Source: Alphaproteobacteria bacterium (GTDB lineage: Bacteria; Pseudomonadota; Alphaproteobacteria; JBKEAR01). Taken from it: a DNA stretch of 64,000 nt. Each line of letters opens with the position of its first letter. The first letter of the stretch is position 1. Positions 38,684-47,796 of this stretch are shown in pieces. The position numbers and the translations under genes were made by a program. The stretch is taken from positions 1,298 through 65,297 of the forward strand of contig JBKEAR010000019.1 of the NCBI GenBank assembly GCA_047972425.1. The letters run 5' to 3'. Under the pieces are notes generated by a model. That model searched no databases. It was given only the letters and a program-made list of their open reading frames with translations, and had not been told where the DNA came from.

Positions 38684-39239
38684 ATGAAAAAATTTCTATG
38701 GTTAGCTTTTATATTCGCTCTTGCCGCTGGGGCGCAAGATAATGAAACACCAAAGCAAAATGATGAAGTCATTAATTTTGAGATAACCGATAATGATGAG
38801 CTCAATGGCATGTTACAAGCCATTGCCAATGACGATTGGTTTGGGTTTCAAAAGCTGATTAATGATGGTGTGGATATAAATATTAAGGATAAAAGCGGCG
38901 CAACAGCCTTATTATATGCGGTTACCTTTGGTGAAACGGATATGGTTAAGCTGCTTATTGATAAAGATGCCGATGTTAATGTGCAAACCGTTGAGCGTAA
39001 ACTCACGCCCATTATGCTCGCGGCTATGAATGGCAATATAGATATTATTAAGCTTTTATTGGCCAAAGATGCCACACTCGATGCCCAAAGCCCTTACAGC
39101 GGTAATGCAACAGGGTAATTTAGAATTTGCTGATATATTATTAAATGCCGAAAATAACGATGGTTATACGGCTGCCGAGTTTGCCACCCAATTTAATCAG
39201 GCTGAGCTTGCAAAATATCTACAATCGCTGTTAAAGTAA
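38684..39239 (+). CDS. secreted ankyrin-repeat protein, interrupted by an apparent +1 frameshift near 39086-39110
   Basis: The track ORF 38684..39118 (signal peptide plus ANK repeats) ends at TAA 39116. The +1 frame continues ankyrin-consensus sequence (ALTAVMQQGNLEFADILLNAENNDGYTAAEFATQFNQAELAKYLQSLLK) to TAA 39237-39239. Confidence 0.55.
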
Positions 39240-39279
39240 AAACAACCCGTAAATCTTGTGCCAAAAGAGGAATATAATA

Positions 39280-40413
39280 ATGACGATGATACAACGCTTT
39301 TTGATGATTATTATGGGCTTTTTTAGTTTATTTGCTCATGCCAATGATGGTGCATTTTATGCATCAGGTAACCATTTAATTCCTATTCAGGAAAATAATA
39401 TTGCTTTAAAAAAAGAAGTACTCACTTTAGATTGGCAAGCAGGTGGTATTTTGGTGAGGGTGGAATATATATTAGATAACCCTGATACTGCACGCAATTT
39501 GCTAGTGGGGTTTGAAGCAAAATCTCCCGAAGGAGATGCTGATATAGAGCCCAAAAAAACAGGTAATCCTTATATTACCAATTTTTCGGTGGTCATGAAT
39601 GGAGAGATGCTTGATCATCAGGTTGCTATTATTGAAAGTAGCGATGATTTGCGAGAATATTATAAAAATAACCCAATAAAACCTGTAGACCTTAAAGAGA
39701 TTGAAGAAGCTTGGGCGGGTAGAATGGAAGATTTTAGATGGGCAGGTAAATATGTATATTATTTTGAAGCCCCTTTTAAAAAAGGCCGTAATAGCATTAT
39801 TCATGAATATTTTTTCGAAAATAGTGCCTCTATAGGTGTACCGTTTGATATGCATTATATATTAACCGCAGCCAACCGGTGGGCAGGGGAAGAAATTGGC
39901 GATTTTATGCTGATTATTAGCGGGGTAGAAAATAAAGTATTTTATATGACACAAAGCTTTTTTGAAAGCCCCGATGAGTGGGAGATGAAAGGTGAAACCA
40001 AAATATTACCCTCGCTTTTAAGTGATGAAGGCAAAATGGTACGTTTTAAACCCGAGAGTAATGAAATACGCTTTCATAAAAATAATTTTACACCCCAAGG
40101 GGAGCTTGAGATATTTGTATTTGATAAACGTTATTTTAGAGAGCCTTTTGATTATCGGGAACATCGGTTAGATAGCTTTATCCATAGCGAATATCCCTTA
40201 ATTTTTAATAGGGCCTATGACGAAGAATCTCATCGGATTTTGCGTAATTTACCCTTTGCAGCCCGCGGATACACATTTAAAACCCATTATATTCAGCATT
40301 ATTACGATGGCATGGATTGGTACAAGCCCAACCCCGATTATGTGATCAATCTTAATGAGCTCACCCCCGAAGAAAAACAATGGCTTGATATGATTAACGC
40401 GCAAAAACAGTAA
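39280..40413 (+). CDS. secreted protein with DUF4424-like body and C-terminal YARHP domain
   Basis: Start at MTMIQRFLMIIMGFFSLFAHA (SD aagagga). C-terminus RNLPFAARGYTFK...WYKPN fits the YARHP motif; the DUF4424 call is by recall only. Confidence 0.55.
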   Translation: MTMIQRFLMIIMGFFSLFAHANDGAFYASGNHLIPIQENNIALKKEVLTLDWQAGGILVRVEYILDNPDTARNLLVGFEAKSPEGDADIEPKKTGNPYITNFSVVMNGEMLDHQVAIIESSDDLREYYKNNPIKPVDLKEIEEAWAGRMEDFRWAGKYVYYFEAPFKKGRNSIIHEYFFENSASIGVPFDMHYILTAANRWAGEEIGDFMLIISGVENKVFYMTQSFFESPDEWEMKGETKILPSLLSDEGKMVRFKPESNEIRFHKNNFTPQGELEIFVFDKRYFREPFDYREHRLDSFIHSEYPLIFNRAYDEESHRILRNLPFAARGYTFKTHYIQHYYDGMDWYKPNPDYVINLNELTPEEKQWLDMINAQKQ

Positions 40414-42837: not shown

Positions 42838-43704
42838 TTAGTTTTGTAGGGCTGCTTTGCGGGCTTGGTCTAACCAGCTATCCCAAATGGCTTGGTGATT
42901 AGCTACCCATTCATCGGCATGTTTGGCAATATTGCTCTCGGCACTTTCGCCATCTTCCATGCGGGTATTTTGTGCATTAATATCGCCAAGCGGTAACTCA
43001 ATAAGGCTTAAAAACTTCGCGGCTGCGGGGTTTTTCTCTAAAAATTTATTATTGGCAACCACACGAATATCTGAGACCACAAAGCCAAGGTCAACATCGG
43101 GTGTAACGCCGCTATCAATGCCTTTTACGCTCATCCATTGCTCGCTACCTTTTTGGGCATCATTGGGTTGAATGCTCGGTACATTAAGCCAATAATCAAC
43201 ATCGCCCAAGCCACCGGCTCCAATCAGTGCCGAGGTTACAACCATAGAAAGTGCCATCATAATGGTTTGGTTAAGGCCGGCAAAAATACTGGGGCGGGCT
43301 AACGGAAGTTGCACTTTAAATAAAACTTGCATGGGGTTTGCACCATAGGCACGGGCGGCAATAATCCCAAGTGGGATACCGATAATGGTACAAATAATGA
43401 CCGAGCATACAATCATAGCAAGTGAGGTCATGGAAAGTTGCCATAAACCCAATAAAGCAATAATTAAAAAGCTTAATTCGCTAAATATTGCCAATTTAAT
43501 ACCCCCACGCCAAAAAGCAATGGCCGTGATAATGGCAATCATAATCAGCGGGTTGGGGAGCATGAAAATATGAATGAGAAAATCTAAAAACGAGTTAACC
43601 GGTGTTTTAATTGCTTGGAAAACATAACGATAGTTAATCATCCAATCCATTAAATTATCAATCCATTGTTGTAATGGAATTAGGGCTTCGGAAAAGTTCC
43701 ACAT
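42838..43704 (-). pseudogene. ProW-type glycine-betaine ABC permease (N-terminal about 165 aa) fused in frame to the C-terminal half of a ProX/OpuAC substrate-binding protein; probable deletion remnant
   Basis: The permease part stops after the EAA-loop/GAGGLG region, lacking the last TM helix. The C-terminal approx 120 aa (from [10 protein letters not shown]) was judged, without an alignment, to resemble a ProX/OpuAC-type substrate-binding protein and not a permease. Confidence 0.5.
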
Positions 43705-44174
43705 TATACCGTCTCCTCTAATTTATTATTATTTTCTTTGGCTTCATCCTTAGGTGCATCGGCAATATTGAGACCAAAGGCTACATTATCAATGACCGAT
43801 AAATGGGGTAGCAATGCAAAGGATTGAAACACCATGGCCATTTTGCTTTTACGCACCTCGCGTAAGGCTTTTTTATCTAATTTTGTAATATTGGTATCGT
43901 CAATAATAACATCGCCCGTTATGGGGCGAATAAGTAAATTTAACATACGGATCAAAGTGGATTTACCCGAGCCAGAAAGCCCCATAATCACAAAAATTTC
44001 ACCCGGATAAATTTCTAAATTGGCATCGTAAACGCCCACATGTTTGCCGGTTTTTTCTAATATTTCTTGTTTGGTTGCCCCTTTTTGTAATTGTTGAATG
44101 GCTAATTTTGTGTTTTTGCCAAATATTTTAGAGACATGTTTAATTGTAATCTTCGGCTGTTGGGCTTCAGACAT
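43704..44174 (-). pseudogene. truncated ProV/OpuAA ABC ATPase (Walker A only, 156 aa)
   Basis: GLSGSGKST present, but Q-loop, LSGGQ, Walker B and CBS domains are absent; its stop overlaps the start of the downstream permease remnant. Confidence 0.6.
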
Positions 44175-44525
44175 AATAACTCTTTGTTAATTTGCGAATG
44201 CGAAATAACATTACATCTCCCAAAATACTGGGAGTGTATCAATGATGATTTCATACAATATTGAGATTAATATCGTCTCAATGTGAATTTATCGAATATA
44301 AATTCCTTTATTTATCTTCGCTTAGATTCTACTTATCTGTTATGCTCTAAACAATTGCACCATAAAACTTTGGATTCGACACCCTAAAGAATGTAACTGA
44401 TTATACATTCGCAATTATTTGAAAAATAATGAGCACAACCTCATAACAAAAAGCACTATAACATAGGCCAGAATAAAAATCAAAACACAGCCCTGCCAAT
44501 GTTATCAAGATATTGTCAGATAATA

Positions 44526-45761
44526 CTATTTTTGCGTGAGTTTAATCTCAATGCGGCGGTTTTGGGCGAGGTCTTGGGGGCTATTGCCTTCATTAATTGG
44601 GTGATACTCGCCAAAGCCAGCAGCCACAAGGCGATTAGGCGGCACACCATCGTTAATCAGCCGCTGCACTACCGATAACGCCCGCGCATTAGAAAGCGCC
44701 CAGTTATCCTTATATTGTGTACCCGAATAAGGCCTTTTATCGGTATGGCCGTCCACACGGATAATCCAATCGATATCATTGGGGATTTTTTGGGCGATAG
44801 ATTTTATAATGCCCGCTAGCCGATCCACTGATTGTACGCCCTCAGTACCTAAGTCGGCAGAGGCCGAGTTAAATAATACACCCGAAGATATAACAAAGCG
44901 ATCGCCTTCGATTTTAATATCATCACTATTGCCCAAAGCTTGGCGCAAATTACCAAAAAATTCTGAGCGATATTTTTGTAACTGATTAACCTCTGAAGCT
45001 AAAGCTTCATTGATGCGATTACCTAAATCGGAAATTTCTATTTTTTGATTTTCGATGGTTTCATCTCTTAAAGCCAAGGCATTTTCTACATTTTGCAGGC
45101 TGGTGGCTAAGGTACCGATTTGCTCTCTTAGGGTAATCATTTCGGCCTCGGCATCAATTTGCGCTTGCGATTTTACCGACAATTGGCTGTCTTTATCGCT
45201 GACCTCTTGCGTTAACGCTGCAATGCGCGCATTCAGCTCTTCTTCGCTGAGTTTCGCTTGGGTCACTTCTTCTTGGGCTGCTTTTAATGCCGTTTGTTGC
45301 TGGAGCTTAATATTGGTAATATCACCCAGTAATTTTTGCCTTGTGGCCTCTAAGGCAACAATTTGCGCATTTAAACTACTGGTTTGTTCTTGGTTATAAA
45401 CGCTTTCTTCTTGGCGTAAGCCAATCAGCTCGCCAAGCTCTCTCAGTAGTTTTTCTTGCTCAAGTTTGGCCTTTTGTAAATCGGCAGATAACCCGGTGAC
45501 TTGGGTTTCGTAAGCACCCACTTGGTCTTCATATTCTTTAACAATATTGCCAAATTCATCAACCTGTTGCGTGGCATCGGTCAGCTCGGTTTCTAAGGTG
45601 GATATTTCCTCATTTTTACCGCTTAAACTTTGGCCTAAACTAAAGGATATTACCGAAAATAAAGCCATCATAAAGACAAACAGCAATAACAGGGTCGATA
45701 TCGCATCAACAAAGCCCGGCCAAACATCAAATCCTTGTTGGTCTTTTCTACGCCGTGCCAT
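44526..45761 (-). CDS. MotB/OmpA-like protein: N-terminal MotB-type TM helix, about 230-aa coiled coil, C-terminal OmpA peptidoglycan-binding domain
   Basis: WPGFVDAISTLLLLFVFMMALF (MotB-like TM). Heptad-rich Q/E/L region. OmpA_C motifs (RVDGHTD...NWALSNARA...RRIEI). Confidence 0.75.
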   Translation of the reverse strand: MARRRKDQQGFDVWPGFVDAISTLLLLFVFMMALFSVISFSLGQSLSGKNEEISTLETELTDATQQVDEFGNIVKEYEDQVGAYETQVTGLSADLQKAKLEQEKLLRELGELIGLRQEESVYNQEQTSSLNAQIVALEATRQKLLGDITNIKLQQQTALKAAQEEVTQAKLSEEELNARIAALTQEVSDKDSQLSVKSQAQIDAEAEMITLREQIGTLATSLQNVENALALRDETIENQKIEISDLGNRINEALASEVNQLQKYRSEFFGNLRQALGNSDDIKIEGDRFVISSGVLFNSASADLGTEGVQSVDRLAGIIKSIAQKIPNDIDWIIRVDGHTDKRPYSGTQYKDNWALSNARALSVVQRLINDGVPPNRLVAAGFGEYHPINEGNSPQDLAQNRRIEIKLTQK

Positions 45762-46853
45762 TTATTCACCTGTATTCGGGGTATTTTTATATAATAATTG
45801 CTCTAATATGCGCTTAATTTGGTTAAGCTCTATCCATTGTAAATCTTGCTCTTGGCTTTCCTCTTTGGCTAAATGTACATTGGTTTGCTCTAGCTGTTTC
45901 GCAATATAATGCAAAATATTATCATAATAATTTTGTTGGCTATTCGACTGTTGCGCTAAAAGATTATCAATAGTTGTTTTTTGTGCATCAATCATTTGGC
46001 TATTATATTGCGCCAGCTGATAAAGTGCCGGCATATCTTTGGCCATGGCATCAATAGAGGCATTAATATTTTCGGCAATTTTAATATTACCGGCGGTTAA
46101 TTGCGATAATGCATTCACTTGCTTTTGGCTTTGCTCTAAAAAAGCTTGCATTTGGCTAAGGGATATATTTTCTTTCCATTGGGTGAGTTTAGAGATAATT
46201 TCTTCAACCGCAAGCATAAAGCGGTTTTCGGCCTGATTAACCTGTAAATGGATAAAACCCAATATCAAAGATGCCGAAAGCCCAAATAAAGAAGATGCAA
46301 AGGCTGTGCGCATGCCCGAAAGCGGTTGTGATAATTGGCCGAGTAGCTGATTAATCACATTTTCATTGGCGTTTTCGGTAAAGGAGCCAGAGAAAATTTC
46401 GGTGAGGCTAGAGGTTGTAATTAGCAAACCCCAAAATGTGCCCAATAGCCCTAAAAACACCAATAAGCTAATCACATAGCGGGATATCGCTTTATTTTCA
46501 TCGAGCCGAGCTTCGACATTTTCGAAGATAAATTGTGTATTTTGCGGGGTGACTTGGTGGTCTTTAATCTCACCTTGTATCGCTTGCAGCGGCTTTAAAA
46601 AATGCAATGGTTTTTGCGGTAAATCCTGTTTTTTCATCCATGCATTTATCCAAGCACATTCATTTTGCAGGCGCAATAATATCCATATATTGTAAATAAC
46701 ACCTAAAATAAACACAATAAGAATAAGGGAGTTTATGGGAATATTTGCCATAAAAAAGGAAATAAGATGCTGATATAATAAAGCGATTAGCCCGATGATG
46801 ATAGCTAAAAAAAATAGAATGCGTAGCCAATATCGGTTGAGTGAAATTGTCAT
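45762..46853 (-). CDS. MotA/TolQ/ExbB-family proton-channel protein with about 170-aa C-terminal coiled-coil tail
   Basis: 4 TM helices with LGLLGTFWGL and TAFASSLFGLSASLILG, the signature TM3/TM4 motifs of MotA/ExbB. Start at MTISLNRYW (SD gaagagg); the track start at 46886 is an alternative. Stop abuts the start of the MotB-like gene. Confidence 0.7.
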   Translation of the reverse strand: MTISLNRYWLRILFFLAIIIGLIALLYQHLISFFMANIPINSLILIVFILGVIYNIWILLRLQNECAWINAWMKKQDLPQKPLHFLKPLQAIQGEIKDHQVTPQNTQFIFENVEARLDENKAISRYVISLLVFLGLLGTFWGLLITTSSLTEIFSGSFTENANENVINQLLGQLSQPLSGMRTAFASSLFGLSASLILGFIHLQVNQAENRFMLAVEEIISKLTQWKENISLSQMQAFLEQSQKQVNALSQLTAGNIKIAENINASIDAMAKDMPALYQLAQYNSQMIDAQKTTIDNLLAQQSNSQQNYYDNILHYIAKQLEQTNVHLAKEESQEQDLQWIELNQIKRILEQLLYKNTPNTGE

Positions 46854-46976
46854 AATGTGAGCCTCTTCTTTTTTTATGTTTATCATAGCCTACATGTTCT
46901 TTATGTGCAACACACATATTGTTGACTTTGGCTTGATAATCGGGTTTAAATGGATAAACAAAAATAGGGAGTACCA

Positions 46977-47186
46977 ATGGAATATTTACGGGTAATTTTA
47001 TATGCAGGGGCTGCTTTTTATTGTGGTTATACTGTAAAAATGGGATATGACGAATATTTAAAATCGGGCGATAAACGTATTATTTTAGCGATGGTGGCGT
47101 TTTCGATTGCAACCGTTGTAATTGGCTATTTATCATACCGTGAATATAGGCGGGTAAAAGCCGAAAAAGAAGATAAGAAAGAATAA
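46977..47186 (+). CDS. small membrane protein (69 aa, 2 TM)
   Basis: ORF with SD (agggag); hydrophobic segments; divergent from the MotA-like gene. Confidence 0.4.
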   Translation: MEYLRVILYAGAAFYCGYTVKMGYDEYLKSGDKRIILAMVAFSIATVVIGYLSYREYRRVKAEKEDKKE

Positions 47187-47201
47187 AAAGGAGTATATAA
47201 T

Positions 47202-47327
47202 ATGGAAGTTGAACAATCAGCATTTTTAAGCCCTCCAATGTTAATTGGCTTAATTGCACTTGGGGTAGTATTGGTTGCGATTGCTTATTTGGCTTATGGG
47301 CAACATAAGAAAAAAGATGATAAATAG
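47202..47327 (+). CDS. small membrane protein (41 aa, 1 TM, KKKDDK tail)
   Basis: MEVEQSAFLSPPMLIGLIALGVVLVAIAYLAYGQHKKKDDK; strong SD aaaggag 8 nt upstream; below the ORF-track length cutoff. Confidence 0.35.
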   Translation: MEVEQSAFLSPPMLIGLIALGVVLVAIAYLAYGQHKKKDDK

Positions 47328-47415
47328 TTTTGCGATAGATGTTGCGCAAAATAAGGAAATTGACTATATTTGAGTTAGTTAAAAATATTGAGAAAAAATT
47401 AAGGAGCTCTGCTAC

Positions 47416-47796
47416 GTGACAACCGCCGAAAAACCAATTTTAGAAGGCAAGGCACTTTTAGATGTCATTATTGAATCCATTGATTCTGATAAAGCCGAAG
47501 ATATTGTGACCATTGATTTAGGAAACAAAACCGATATTGCCGATTATATGGTTGTGGCATCGGGTAATGTTAACCGGCATGTTGCGGCAATCTCGGAGCA
47601 TTTAGCCGAAAAACTTAAAAAACTCGGCCATTCACCTATCCAAGTAGAAGGTTTAGAAGAAGCCGATTGGGTATTATTGGATACTGGCGATGTGATAGTG
47701 CATGTTTTTCGCCCGGAAGTACGCGATTTTTATAAAATTGAGCAAATGTGGGAAGAAATGCCATCGCTTTTGTCGCGACAGGTCGAAGAATTATAA
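47416..47796 (+). CDS. rsfS: ribosome silencing factor RsfS (Iojap)
   Basis: GTG start with SD aaggag; iojap-family sequence. Confidence 0.85.
   Translation: MTTAEKPILEGKALLDVIIESIDSDKAEDIVTIDLGNKTDIADYMVVASGNVNRHVAAISEHLAEKLKKLGHSPIQVEGLEEADWVLLDTGDVIVHVFRPEVRDFYKIEQMWEEMPSLLSRQVEEL

Follow-up and report, generated by a model that had tools for sequence, protein, structure and literature searches.

Organization of the gene pair

The window, the whole stretch of 64,000 nucleotides analysed here from an alphaproteobacterial contig (JBKEAR010000019.1), carries two adjoining genes on the minus strand that are referred to as A and B. An earlier note, made from the sequence alone, had described them as an uncharacterised stator-like two-gene module. 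The ORF listing places both reading frames where that note had them, and the description as a stator-like module stands: A is a MotA/ExbB/ZorA-type protein and B is a MotB-type protein with a transmembrane (TM) aspartate and an OmpA domain. The genes and their regions are listed below with the evidence for each.

45762..46853, minus strand: A subunit gene, whose 363-aa product is a channel protein of the MotA/ExbB/TolQ/ZorA type, has four predicted TM helices and ends in a cytoplasmic helical tail
46674..46832, minus strand: A residues 8-60, TM1 and TM2 (hydropathy segments 8-26 and 42-60; AlphaFold2 helices 6-25 and 27-73, pLDDT >90)
46491..46673, minus strand: A residues 61-121, short cytoplasmic loop ending in the invariant RLDE.R.ISRY (AlphaFold2 helices 87-96 and 103-155)
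46242..46490, minus strand: A residues 122-204, predicted ion-pathway core of TM3, periplasmic loop and TM4 (invariant columns; Pfam and ZorA3 matches)
45765..46241, minus strand: A residues 205-363, cytoplasmic helical tail, the presumed output element (AlphaFold2 helices, family tail length, dN/dS)
44526..45761, minus strand: B subunit gene, encoding a 411-aa MotB-type protein, member of NCBIfam NF006543 (PRK09039.1-2)
45636..45722, minus strand: B residues 14-42, WPGFVD (Asp19) and the single TM helix (hydropathy segment 24-42)
44934..45635, minus strand: B residues 43-276, periplasmic helical linker of 234 aa with three long helices (AlphaFold2; alignment A2)
44535..44918, minus strand: B residues 282-409, OmpA/MotB-type peptidoglycan-binding domain (Pfam OmpA; PDB; Foldseek)

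An alternative start for A at 46886 would give a protein of 374 aa; the ATG at 46853, which is the start chosen by gene callers, is preferred since a GAAGAGG Shine-Dalgarno sequence lies 8 nt upstream. The TAA stop codon of A directly adjoins the ATG of B, and an AGGTGA sequence within the 3' end of the A gene precedes the B start. A promoter and terminator scan of positions 44100-47450 returned no signal beyond shuffle expectation, and no second MotA/MotB-like gene was found in the window.

The neighbours of the pair are rsfS, rlmH, pnp, an NMO-family gene, remnants of proVWX and an esterase gene. As had been described, the proVWX operon is decayed, and the A-B pair beside its remnants is intact; inspection of the flanking genes agreed that the locus has no flagellar, Tol or Ton context. 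Two tiny TM ORFs (46977-47186 and 47202-47327) had been put forward as accessory parts. They are real ORFs, but are present only in the window's own clade and are therefore not conserved partners.

The A subunit

The Pfam MotA_ExbB model matches A over residues 110-204 with a score barely above its cutoff (23.4 against 22.9 bits) and was found in 55 of 60 A family members; A has the channel fold by which the 5:2 motor superfamily is recognized. The two motifs first noticed in A are present, LGLLGTFWGL at residues 134-143 and AFASSLFGLSASLILG at residues 184-199, and both fall within family-invariant blocks. TM3 reads FLGLLGTFWGL and includes Thr139, while TM4 reads TAF.SSLFGL..SL.LGF and includes Ser187/Ser188. 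In the 60-sequence alignment, T139, S188 and the stretch G135-L143 are invariant and S187 is nearly so. The core TM helices were modeled by AlphaFold2 with pLDDT values of 92-97, and ZorA3 models match residues 122-201. Further invariant positions are F15, F34, N37 and N41 in the TM1/TM2 region and R116, L117, E119, S124, R125 and Y126 around the loop motif. From hydropathy and AlphaFold2, the TM2-TM3 cytoplasmic loop is only ~60 aa.

The tail that had been described as a coiled coil of about 170 aa is indeed present; however, it spans 159 aa and was modeled as four helices rather than as a single continuous coil. The AlphaFold2 helices in or near it (165-228, 232-254, 257-301, 309-331 and 338-356) have pLDDT values of 40-73. 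A 3.5-residue hydrophobic periodicity is significant in residues 228-301 (z=4.3) but not in residues 302-363. A PDB sequence search with the single A protein gave no significant match, and the matches of the A1 alignment profile were dominated by designed coiled coils aligning to the tail. With Foldseek, ExbB and TolQ were the best structural matches of A and flagellar MotA ranked below all other motors (E 0.18, prob 0.54).

The B subunit

The B protein scores 342.7 bits against NF006543 (cutoff 305). The other four PRK09039 submodels gave 236-286 bits, under their respective cutoffs, which assigns B to subfamily.1-2. In its amino-terminal region W14, P15, F17, V18 and D19 are invariant among 53 sequences, and Asp19 is taken here to be the proton-carrying aspartate of 5:2 motors.

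A long helical region of about 230 aa, read earlier as a coiled coil, is real (residues 43-276), but it is composed of three long helices and its coiled-coil nature is not specifically supported. AlphaFold2 places the helices of B at 15-115, 120-194 and 201-276, with the arrangement of the domains uncertain (pTM 0.39). Across the family, the last part of the linker (~205-276) is conserved and the middle is variable in length. The 3.5-residue periodicity is significant in residues 43-115 and 201-276 but not in residues 120-194. Since a globular OmpA control likewise scored in this test, the periodicity indicates amphipathic helices and is not specific evidence for a coiled coil. The concern that the helical regions might be low-complexity artefacts was also checked; in neither A nor B are they low-complexity, as their sequence entropy resembles the values for the globular parts.

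The C-terminal domain is recognized by Pfam OmpA over residues 296-402 (63.4 bits, 2.5e-17). Its closest sequence match in the PDB is MotB (6ysf, 1.1e-16), and a Foldseek search placed the periplasmic domains of MotS, PomB and MotB best (E 3e-11, TM-score 0.72-0.74).

Family breadth, gene order and selection

Judged from profile and sequence matches, the pair belongs to a large alphaproteobacterial family that is already catalogued as NF006543/PRK09039, and the window copy is an ordinary member of it. Homologues number in the thousands across Alphaproteobacteria; for A, relatives at E ≤ 1e-30 fall into 189 clusters at 50% identity, and all 53 aligned B homologues match all five PRK09039 submodels. 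The two window proteins contain the full set of family motifs, which show little or no variation in alignments A1 and A2 (WPGFVD and RYRSEFFG in B; FLGLLGTFWGL, TAF.SSLFGL and RLDE.R.ISRY in A). The claim of a new and unusual candidate is not sustained, as B lies above the cutoff of a curated family and its exact sequence is already in NCBI (MFV0321685.1, named 'peptidoglycan-binding protein'). The long extensions are also the norm: the family median is 160 aa for the A tail and 199 aa for the B linker, the latter with a minimum of 143 aa. At ~222-234 aa, the window B linker falls at the upper end of the family range. In source annotations, members often bear the names 'flagellar motor protein MotA' and 'chemotaxis protein MotB'.

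The two genes are strictly paired. In all eight complete B-seeded loci the A gene is immediately upstream of B on the same strand, and B follows A in every A-seeded locus. The pair is usually placed after thiE-efp-suhB, and Brucella, Minwuia, Magnetovibrio and Rhodospirillales are among the lineages that retain the order thiE-efp-suhB-(OmpA gene)-A-B. The extra OmpA-domain gene lies directly upstream of A in at least nine loci and is absent from the window, Brucella and one further locus (L018). The window copy differs from its family in location, beside rsfS-rlmH-pnp after a move away from the ancestral efp-suhB locus, and in being without the extra upstream gene that many lineages have.

The dN/dS ratio of the pair is about 0.06, which is the level of its neighbours rsfS and rlmH. 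By region, values are 0.044 for the A tail, 0.057 for B as a whole, 0.053 for the B linker and 0.019 for the B TM segment, the lowest of all. Since the A tail is selected as strongly as the core, a function of its own is suggested. The alternative of a patchy, defence-island-like distribution is not supported; stable thiE-efp-suhB synteny in distant lineages and a dN/dS like that of ribosome-related neighbours identify the pair as conserved core. The efp/suhB synteny itself carries no information on function.

Related proteins in the literature

A search of the literature on PRK09039, alphaproteobacterial stator-like systems, the ExbB proton channel family and ZorAB-like homologues found no mechanistic study. 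The description of the pair as uncharacterised is correct in that no mechanism or function is established for the family; it does not extend to Komagataeibacter hansenii, for which overexpression, disruption and localisation of genes named motA and motB have been reported (PMC6570709, PMC7347698). These genes appear to be members of the PRK09039-type family, a link that rests on short primer-derived peptides, whose terminal positions and collinear order are as expected, rather than on full sequences. K. hansenii is non-flagellated (PMC6570709). GFP fusions of its MotA and MotB are polar, overexpression produces longer cells and more spreading, and disruption mutants of motAB are viable with denser cellulose; the phenotypes come mostly from overexpression and are indirect, and the authors read them as motility effects (PMC6570709, PMC7347698).

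The Rgs polar-growth proteins of Sinorhizobium meliloti were considered as a characterised counterpart and rejected, as none is of the MotA or OmpA type. One mention of PRK09039 proved to be an unrelated domain label, and a review of the Brucella flagellum gives MotA only as 'unknown'.

Interpretation of the pair as a probable motor

On balance, the pair probably belongs to the 5:2 ion-driven motor superfamily, with neither a flagellar nor a defence function, and is kept as a conserved housekeeping gene pair across Alphaproteobacteria. In the inferred assembly, the TM helices of two B subunits would lie within a ring of five A subunits. Protons would pass by way of B Asp19 and A Thr139 and Ser187/188. 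At the far end of a long periplasmic helical stalk, the MotB-type OmpA domains would anchor the B dimer to peptidoglycan. Proton flow could then rotate the A ring, together with its cytoplasmic helical tails, against the wall, and the A tail, the periplasmic stalk or both may couple this rotation to a putative partner. The most likely cellular role is in homeostasis of the envelope, the cell poles or cell length, and not in motility or phage defence. One aspect of the geometry counts against this model. In E. coli, the distance from the inner membrane to peptidoglycan is ~90 Å (PMC11946911). An extended B linker, taken from the family minimum of at least 143 aa, measures 210-450 Å, far beyond that distance, which the geometry of a wall-anchored stator does not explain.

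Four other readings of the pair were weighed against this one. A paralogue of flagellar stators (MotAB or MotCD-like) is a very improbable identity for the pair, even though many source annotations name it as such, the peptidoglycan-binding domain of B has its nearest counterparts in flagellar MotB, PomB and MotS, and A has four predicted TM helices as in MotA. The flagellar NCBIfam models score B far below their cutoffs (MotD 89.8 against 283, MotS 80.3 against 264, MotB 68.1 against 250), no NCBIfam MotA model matches A at E ≤ 1, and the Foldseek rank of MotA and the short TM2-TM3 loop, with little space for a MotA-type torque domain, point the same way. Flagellar genes were sought in the window flanks and 20 related loci and none was found, and the family apparently occurs in the non-flagellated K. 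hansenii (PMC6570709; primer-peptide link). Equally remote is a Zorya-type anti-phage module in minimal or orphan form, in which a ZorAB-like sensor motor would detect the damage that phages do to the envelope and the tail would signal to effectors encoded elsewhere. In profile searches ZorA is the closest sequence relative among characterised systems: ZorA1 (2.7e-17, A) and ZorB3 (1.5e-26, B) are the best-scoring characterised families on the window pair, ZorA1 and ZorA3 models match all 60 A family members (best E 7e-21), and the NCBIfam model antiphage_ZorA_2 is the sole stator-type NCBIfam model that matches A at all. A cytoplasmic helical tail is also common to A and ZorA. However, the antiphage_ZorA_2 score is 15.4 bits against a cutoff of 100, under the threshold for Zorya membership, and PADLOC ZorA1 aligns only over profile positions 71-294 of 683. 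As had been reported, ZorC/D/E-like genes are lacking; the ten flanking proteins gave no match to ZorC, D, E, F or G or to any other PADLOC family, and no Zor effectors were found in the flanks of related loci. A stable housekeeping locus and a dN/dS at the housekeeping level are also unlike defence islands, and the proportions of the proteins differ, as described below.

A Tol/Ton-like energiser with a periplasmic output is rather unlikely, yet clearly less remote than the flagellar and anti-phage readings. The B stalk would act like a fused TolR-TolA and, through a conformational change driven by protons, pull on or remodel either peptidoglycan or a partner in the outer membrane. Such a partner might be the additional OmpA-domain protein whose gene directly precedes A in at least nine loci, and the A tail would be regulatory only. 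Alphaproteobacteria rely heavily on envelope-tethering systems, which was counted in favour of this reading, as was the placement of ExbB and TolQ as top structural matches of A. The B linker also far exceeds the reach to peptidoglycan (PMC11946911), like the TolA linker (PMC12905483). Against it, B ends in an OmpA domain with no ExbD/TolR or TolA/TonB fold, no ExbB or TolQ NCBIfam model matches A at E ≤ 1, no TonB or TolA-like gene adjoins the pair, the window, Brucella and L018 are without the extra OmpA gene, and the selection on the A tail argues for more than a regulatory part. With membership tests negative for flagellar MotAB, ExbBD/TolQR and Zorya, the claim that the pair is distinct from all three is upheld. 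A static tether between the inner membrane and peptidoglycan, or a periplasmic spacer, with ion conduction lost is improbable. Long periplasmic helical linkers of variable length could serve as spacers or rulers, and the K. hansenii disruption mutants are viable (PMC7347698). However, Asp19 and the polar ion-pathway residues show little or no variation among 53-60 diverse members, the B TM segment is the most constrained of all regions, and a tether would not need a strictly linked pentameric channel partner.

A further interpretation, with a low likelihood comparable to that of the Tol/Ton-like reading, is that the PRK09039-type pair is a housekeeping sister or source of ZorAB. It would be a peptidoglycan-anchored, proton-driven rotary envelope sensor in most Alphaproteobacteria, with the periplasmic coiled coil reading the geometry of the wall or periplasm and the rotating cytoplasmic tail signaling to polar growth or division machinery. 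If so, it would form a fifth class of 5:2 motor beside the flagellar, Ton/Tol, gliding/T9SS and Zorya classes.

The family merits attention as a 5:2-motor-like pair that is widely conserved and under strong constraint in Alphaproteobacteria, the class to which Brucella, rhizobia and acetic acid bacteria belong. Its members are routinely given the flagellar names MotA and MotB in error, and of the relatives of the Zorya defence motor encountered in this analysis, it is the closest by sequence. Finding its output would extend the 5:2 motors by one functional class and could reveal the origin of Zorya. Handles for such work are the efp-suhB-adjacent pair in model species, the residues B Asp19 and A Thr139 and Ser188, and the tail and linker as two candidate output elements.

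Comparison with known systems

The reference flagellar stators MotAB, PomAB and MotPS (PDB: 6ykm, 8bri, 6ysl, 9ljl) share with the pair a four-TM A subunit and a B subunit with an N-terminal TM helix, its aspartate and a peptidoglycan-binding domain at the C terminus; it is to the peptidoglycan-binding domain of these stators that the B domain is most closely related. In contrast to them, A has a short TM2-TM3 loop with little room for a large torque-generating domain, the long helical linker of B takes the place of a plug and flexible linker, and the pair is outside any flagellar context. Relative to ExbB-ExbD and TolQ-TolR (PDB: 6ye4, 5sv0, 9kpz, 8odt), the partner B is MotB-like with an OmpA domain rather than ExbD/TolR-like, and A has the 159-aa tail. 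An extra N-terminal TM helix further sets A apart from the three-TM ExbB, TolQ and ZorA.

For Zorya, the reference is the E. coli type I ZorAB (PDB: 8qyd, 8qyh; Hu et al. 2025, PMC11946911), in which Thr147/Ser184 of ZorA form a filter comparable to the core Thr/Ser residues of A (PMC11946911). The window-type pair resides in the core genome without ZorC-G effectors rather than in a defence island. A has four predicted TM helices against three in ZorA, and its tail is 159 aa (~160 in the family) compared to ~500 aa, or 70 nm, in E. coli ZorA. In ZorB the peptidoglycan-binding domain is joined to the TM helix without a linker (PMC11946911), whereas in B the two are separated by a helical linker of 234 aa, and by at least 143 aa throughout the family.

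The A-B pair is a typical representative of a core alphaproteobacterial family that is large, already catalogued and the subject of some experimental work; it is not a locus-specific novelty.

Genes, domains and predicted folds

44526-45761, minus strand: B, the MotB-type partner, 411-aa ORF
45762-46853, minus strand: A, the MotA/ExbB/TolQ/ZorA-type protein, 363-aa ORF, start shared by independent gene callers
A residues 8-26, 42-60, 122-145 and 183-201: hydrophobic segments, then a 159-residue cytoplasmic tail
B residues 24-42: single TM segment, then a periplasmic linker

A GAAGAGG Shine-Dalgarno sequence lies 8 nt upstream of the A start. The ATG of B comes straight after the TAA stop of A, and AGGTGA is located within the 3' end of A, ahead of the B start. 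The Pfam MotA_ExbB model matches A barely over its cutoff (23.4 bits, cutoff 22.9), and Pfam OmpA matches B at residues 296-402 with 63.4 bits. The abutting ORFs and these two matches bear out the stator-like two-gene module described in the earlier note, and the A motifs quoted there were found within family-invariant blocks.

AlphaFold2 predicted the A core with a pLDDT of mostly 86-97 up to residue 220, followed by four tail helices (pLDDT 40-73). In the B model, the TM helix runs on into a helix spanning residues 15-115, followed by helices 120-194 and 201-276 and an OmpA fold. The earlier note had described coiled-coil extensions on both proteins and had named low-complexity artefact as a danger; neither the A tail nor the B linker is low-complexity. 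The predicted helical regions stand, with small corrections to their lengths, but the term coiled coil is unproven: an amphipathic periodicity of 3.5 residues reached significance in stretches of each region, in a test that also scored the globular OmpA control.

Family membership and size

B belongs to NCBIfam NF006543 (PRK09039.1-2, "peptidoglycan-binding protein"; 342.7 bits, cutoff 305), and an identical protein, from an uncultured alphaproteobacterial MAG, is listed at NCBI with that product name. The five PRK09039 submodels were all matched by each of 53 aligned B homologues. Homologues of A and of B number in the thousands each, with named sources that include Brucella/Ochrobactrum, Roseibium, Hyphomicrobium, Minwuia, Telmatospirillum, Caenispirillum, Roseospirillum, Magnetovibrio, Stellaceae and Xanthobacteraceae. 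Among 1.84 billion cluster representatives searched exhaustively, 189 clusters of A relatives passed E<=1e-30 and 830 passed E<=1e-10.

The extensions had been thought unusual. Among 222 A-type sequences, however, the median tail after TM4 is 160 aa (159 in the window), and among 124 B-type sequences the median linker is 199 aa and the shortest 143 aa (about 222 in the window by the same measure). Since these medians make the window proteins typical, the extensions define the family and are not peculiar to this locus. Linker lengths cluster near 150-175 and 200-225 aa.

Some of the homologues come from MAGs labelled as something other than Alphaproteobacteria (Desulfotignum, Verrucomicrobiia, Burkholderiales; loci L004 and L008, proteins P0166 and P0176). 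One such locus, L008 (Verrucomicrobiia), has the same tblastn coordinates for most genes as L007 (Alphaproteobacteria), which suggests mis-binning rather than transfer.

Gene order across lineages

An A homologue lies immediately upstream of B on the same strand in all eight complete loci retrieved with B alone, and B lies downstream of A at all loci found with A as the query. Loci of Magnetovibrio, Rhodospirillales and Minwuia share the order thiE-efp-suhB-(extra OmpA-domain gene)-A-B. In Brucella the order is efp-suhB-A-B, and efp-suhB-(unknown 220 aa)-A-B occurs in a relative 42% identical to the window protein. Such stable synteny marks a housekeeping locus and not a defence island. In the window's own clade (window, L010, L011, L016, L017, L020, L021) the pair instead lies beside rsfS-rlmH-pnp, and in another relative, L018, at a different site; A and B travelled as a two-gene unit in each relocation.

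The extra OmpA-domain gene lies between suhB and A in at least nine loci (L001, L002, L003, L005-L008, L014, L015), as in Minwuia, where it encodes 343 aa just upstream of A (L014:6936-7967). It is absent from the window, Brucella (L012) and L018, and in L019 its slot is taken by an unrelated protein of 220 aa that matches no Pfam model. The OmpA-domain protein may be a third module component, one that can be dispensed with.

Selection and window neighbourhood

Measured against the 92%-identical relative (L020), dN/dS is 0.060 for A and 0.057 for B, beside 0.060 for rsfS and 0.069 for rlmH. Subregions gave 0.044 (A tail), 0.053 (B linker) and 0.019 (B TM segment).

38684-39118 and 39256-40413, plus strand: ankyrin-repeat and YARHG-domain protein genes, a few kb from the pair
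42838-44174, minus strand: proVWX remnant, a ProV fragment and a ProW-ProX fusion
46977-47186, plus strand: small TM ORF, 69 aa
47202-47327, plus strand: small TM ORF, 41 aa
50506-52008, plus strand: NMO-family gene, longest ORF, GTG start inside the pnp end (86-nt overlap)

The neighbouring proVWX operon is truly decayed, as had been proposed, with only remnants beside the intact pair. Of the 137-position ABC domain, the 156-aa ProV fragment retains only positions 3-92 (the first two thirds), and in the 288-aa fusion ORF a portion of the ProW permease runs into the final ~58 positions of the ProX OpuAC domain. In L020, a PEMT-family gene takes the place of this remnant downstream of B.

The small TM ORFs look like real genes restricted to the window's clade, judging by their conservation. 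The 69-aa protein shares 58% identity with its counterpart in a 71%-identity relative (L010); against L020 it is 87% identical (dN/dS 0.10) and the 41-aa protein 73% (dN/dS 0.18). Both are missing in all loci where the pair has another context and so are not conserved module components; the suggestion that they are accessory parts fails, as they are unlinked to the pair outside this clade.

On identical contigs, callers give a shorter 468-aa product for the NMO-family gene, so the start of the long ORF is probably unused. The source contigs of L018 and L019 (JBEVUO010671851, JBEVUS011057068) come from assemblies of >600,000 contigs. Together with the ankyrin/YARHG genes, the decayed operon and a GC content of ~41%, such assemblies hint at a host-associated alphaproteobacterium.

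The motA/motB genes of Komagataeibacter hansenii

K. hansenii has no flagella (PMC6570709), and its "motA" (348 aa, four TM helices) and "motB" (321 aa, one TM helix and an OmpA domain) were described by Jacek et al. (PMC6570709). Overexpression gave longer cells, more colony spreading and a looser cellulose network; GFP fusions localised to a cell pole, or to both poles where cells were longer; and the energy-receiving partner was stated to be unknown (PMC6570709). Disruption mutants are viable with denser cellulose (PMC7347698). Published cloning and qPCR primers were translated and compared with the A and B family alignments.

Primer-derived K. hansenii peptides and their family counterparts
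MotA N-terminus, position 1: VTRPTTY; family MTRPTRY
MotB N-terminus, position 1: MARRSR; family MARRNR
MotB internal, in family order and spacing: AITVVK; family AISVVK
MotB internal, in family order and spacing: QPLDNG; family QPLDRG
MotB extreme C-terminus: EFRLTDR-stop; family EFKLTER

These peptides, which are short of full length, support placing K. hansenii motA/motB in the A-B family.

Proposed mechanism and relation to known motors

Of the readings considered, a proton-driven A5B2 motor with a housekeeping role in the envelope, at the cell poles or in cell length has the best support. This reading is based on homology, conserved residues, pairing and selection, from which we infer stoichiometry, ion flow, rotation and cellular role. 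A B dimer would be anchored to peptidoglycan, an A ring would bear five cytoplasmic helical tails, and protons would drive the complex. The conserved mechanistic residues are B Asp19 (in WPGFVD), A Thr139 (TM3) and A Ser187/188 (TM4), with counterparts in ZorB Asp26 and ZorA Thr147/Ser184 (PMC11946911).

The main feature that the motor reading does not explain is the length of the B linker. At full extension the linker would reach 210-450 Å, while the E. coli inner membrane lies roughly 90 Å from the peptidoglycan (PMC11946911). The three predicted linker helices of the window are near-equal (73, 75 and 76 aa; 44934-45635, B residues 43-276), which suggests an up-down-up bundle of ~110 Å and, with the family-wide length clusters, points tentatively to a helix having been gained or lost as a module. 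Short family members are without most of the middle helix, and thus no single linker geometry suits all. The output element may be the cytoplasmic tail, as in Zorya, or the periplasmic stalk, as in Tol; taken as a separate reading, the variant with periplasmic output is unlikely, and a static tether is less likely still.

A phage-defence role like that of Zorya is very improbable. In its favour, ZorA models are the best sequence match of A (ZorA1, 2.7e-17 for the window protein); ZorA1 and ZorA3 were matched by 60 of 60 family members (best 7e-21 and 5e-20), beside a family best of 5e-7 for Pfam MotA_ExbB. However, ZorA_2, the sole NCBIfam match of A, had a score of 15.4 bits (cutoff 100), the housekeeping synteny is stable, and the window flanks hold none of the effector genes of Zorya. 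A defence module was rejected, as thiE-efp-suhB is kept in distant lineages. Equally remote is a flagellar stator. The nearest relatives of the B peptidoglycan-binding domain are flagellar MotB, PomB and MotS, but all flagellar NCBIfam models fall far under cutoff against B, the context is not flagellar, A has a short predicted TM2-TM3 loop, and the family appears to occur in a non-flagellated species.

The pair is, as the earlier note held, none of the characterised stator systems. Unlike Ton and Tol, it has an OmpA-type partner and no TonB or TolA. A recent survey of MotAB relatives placed proteins of this sort in a structurally heterogeneous group of "generic ion transporters" and left the A-B family uncharacterised (PMC12505986). 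The interest lies with the family and not the window, as a conserved orphan putative motor of the 5:2 type that is widely mislabelled flagellar MotAB. By sequence it is the nearest relative of ZorAB found in this analysis, from which it differs in having four predicted TM helices in A where ZorA has three, a tail of roughly one third the ZorA length, and a long helical linker in B where ZorB has none (PMC11946911).
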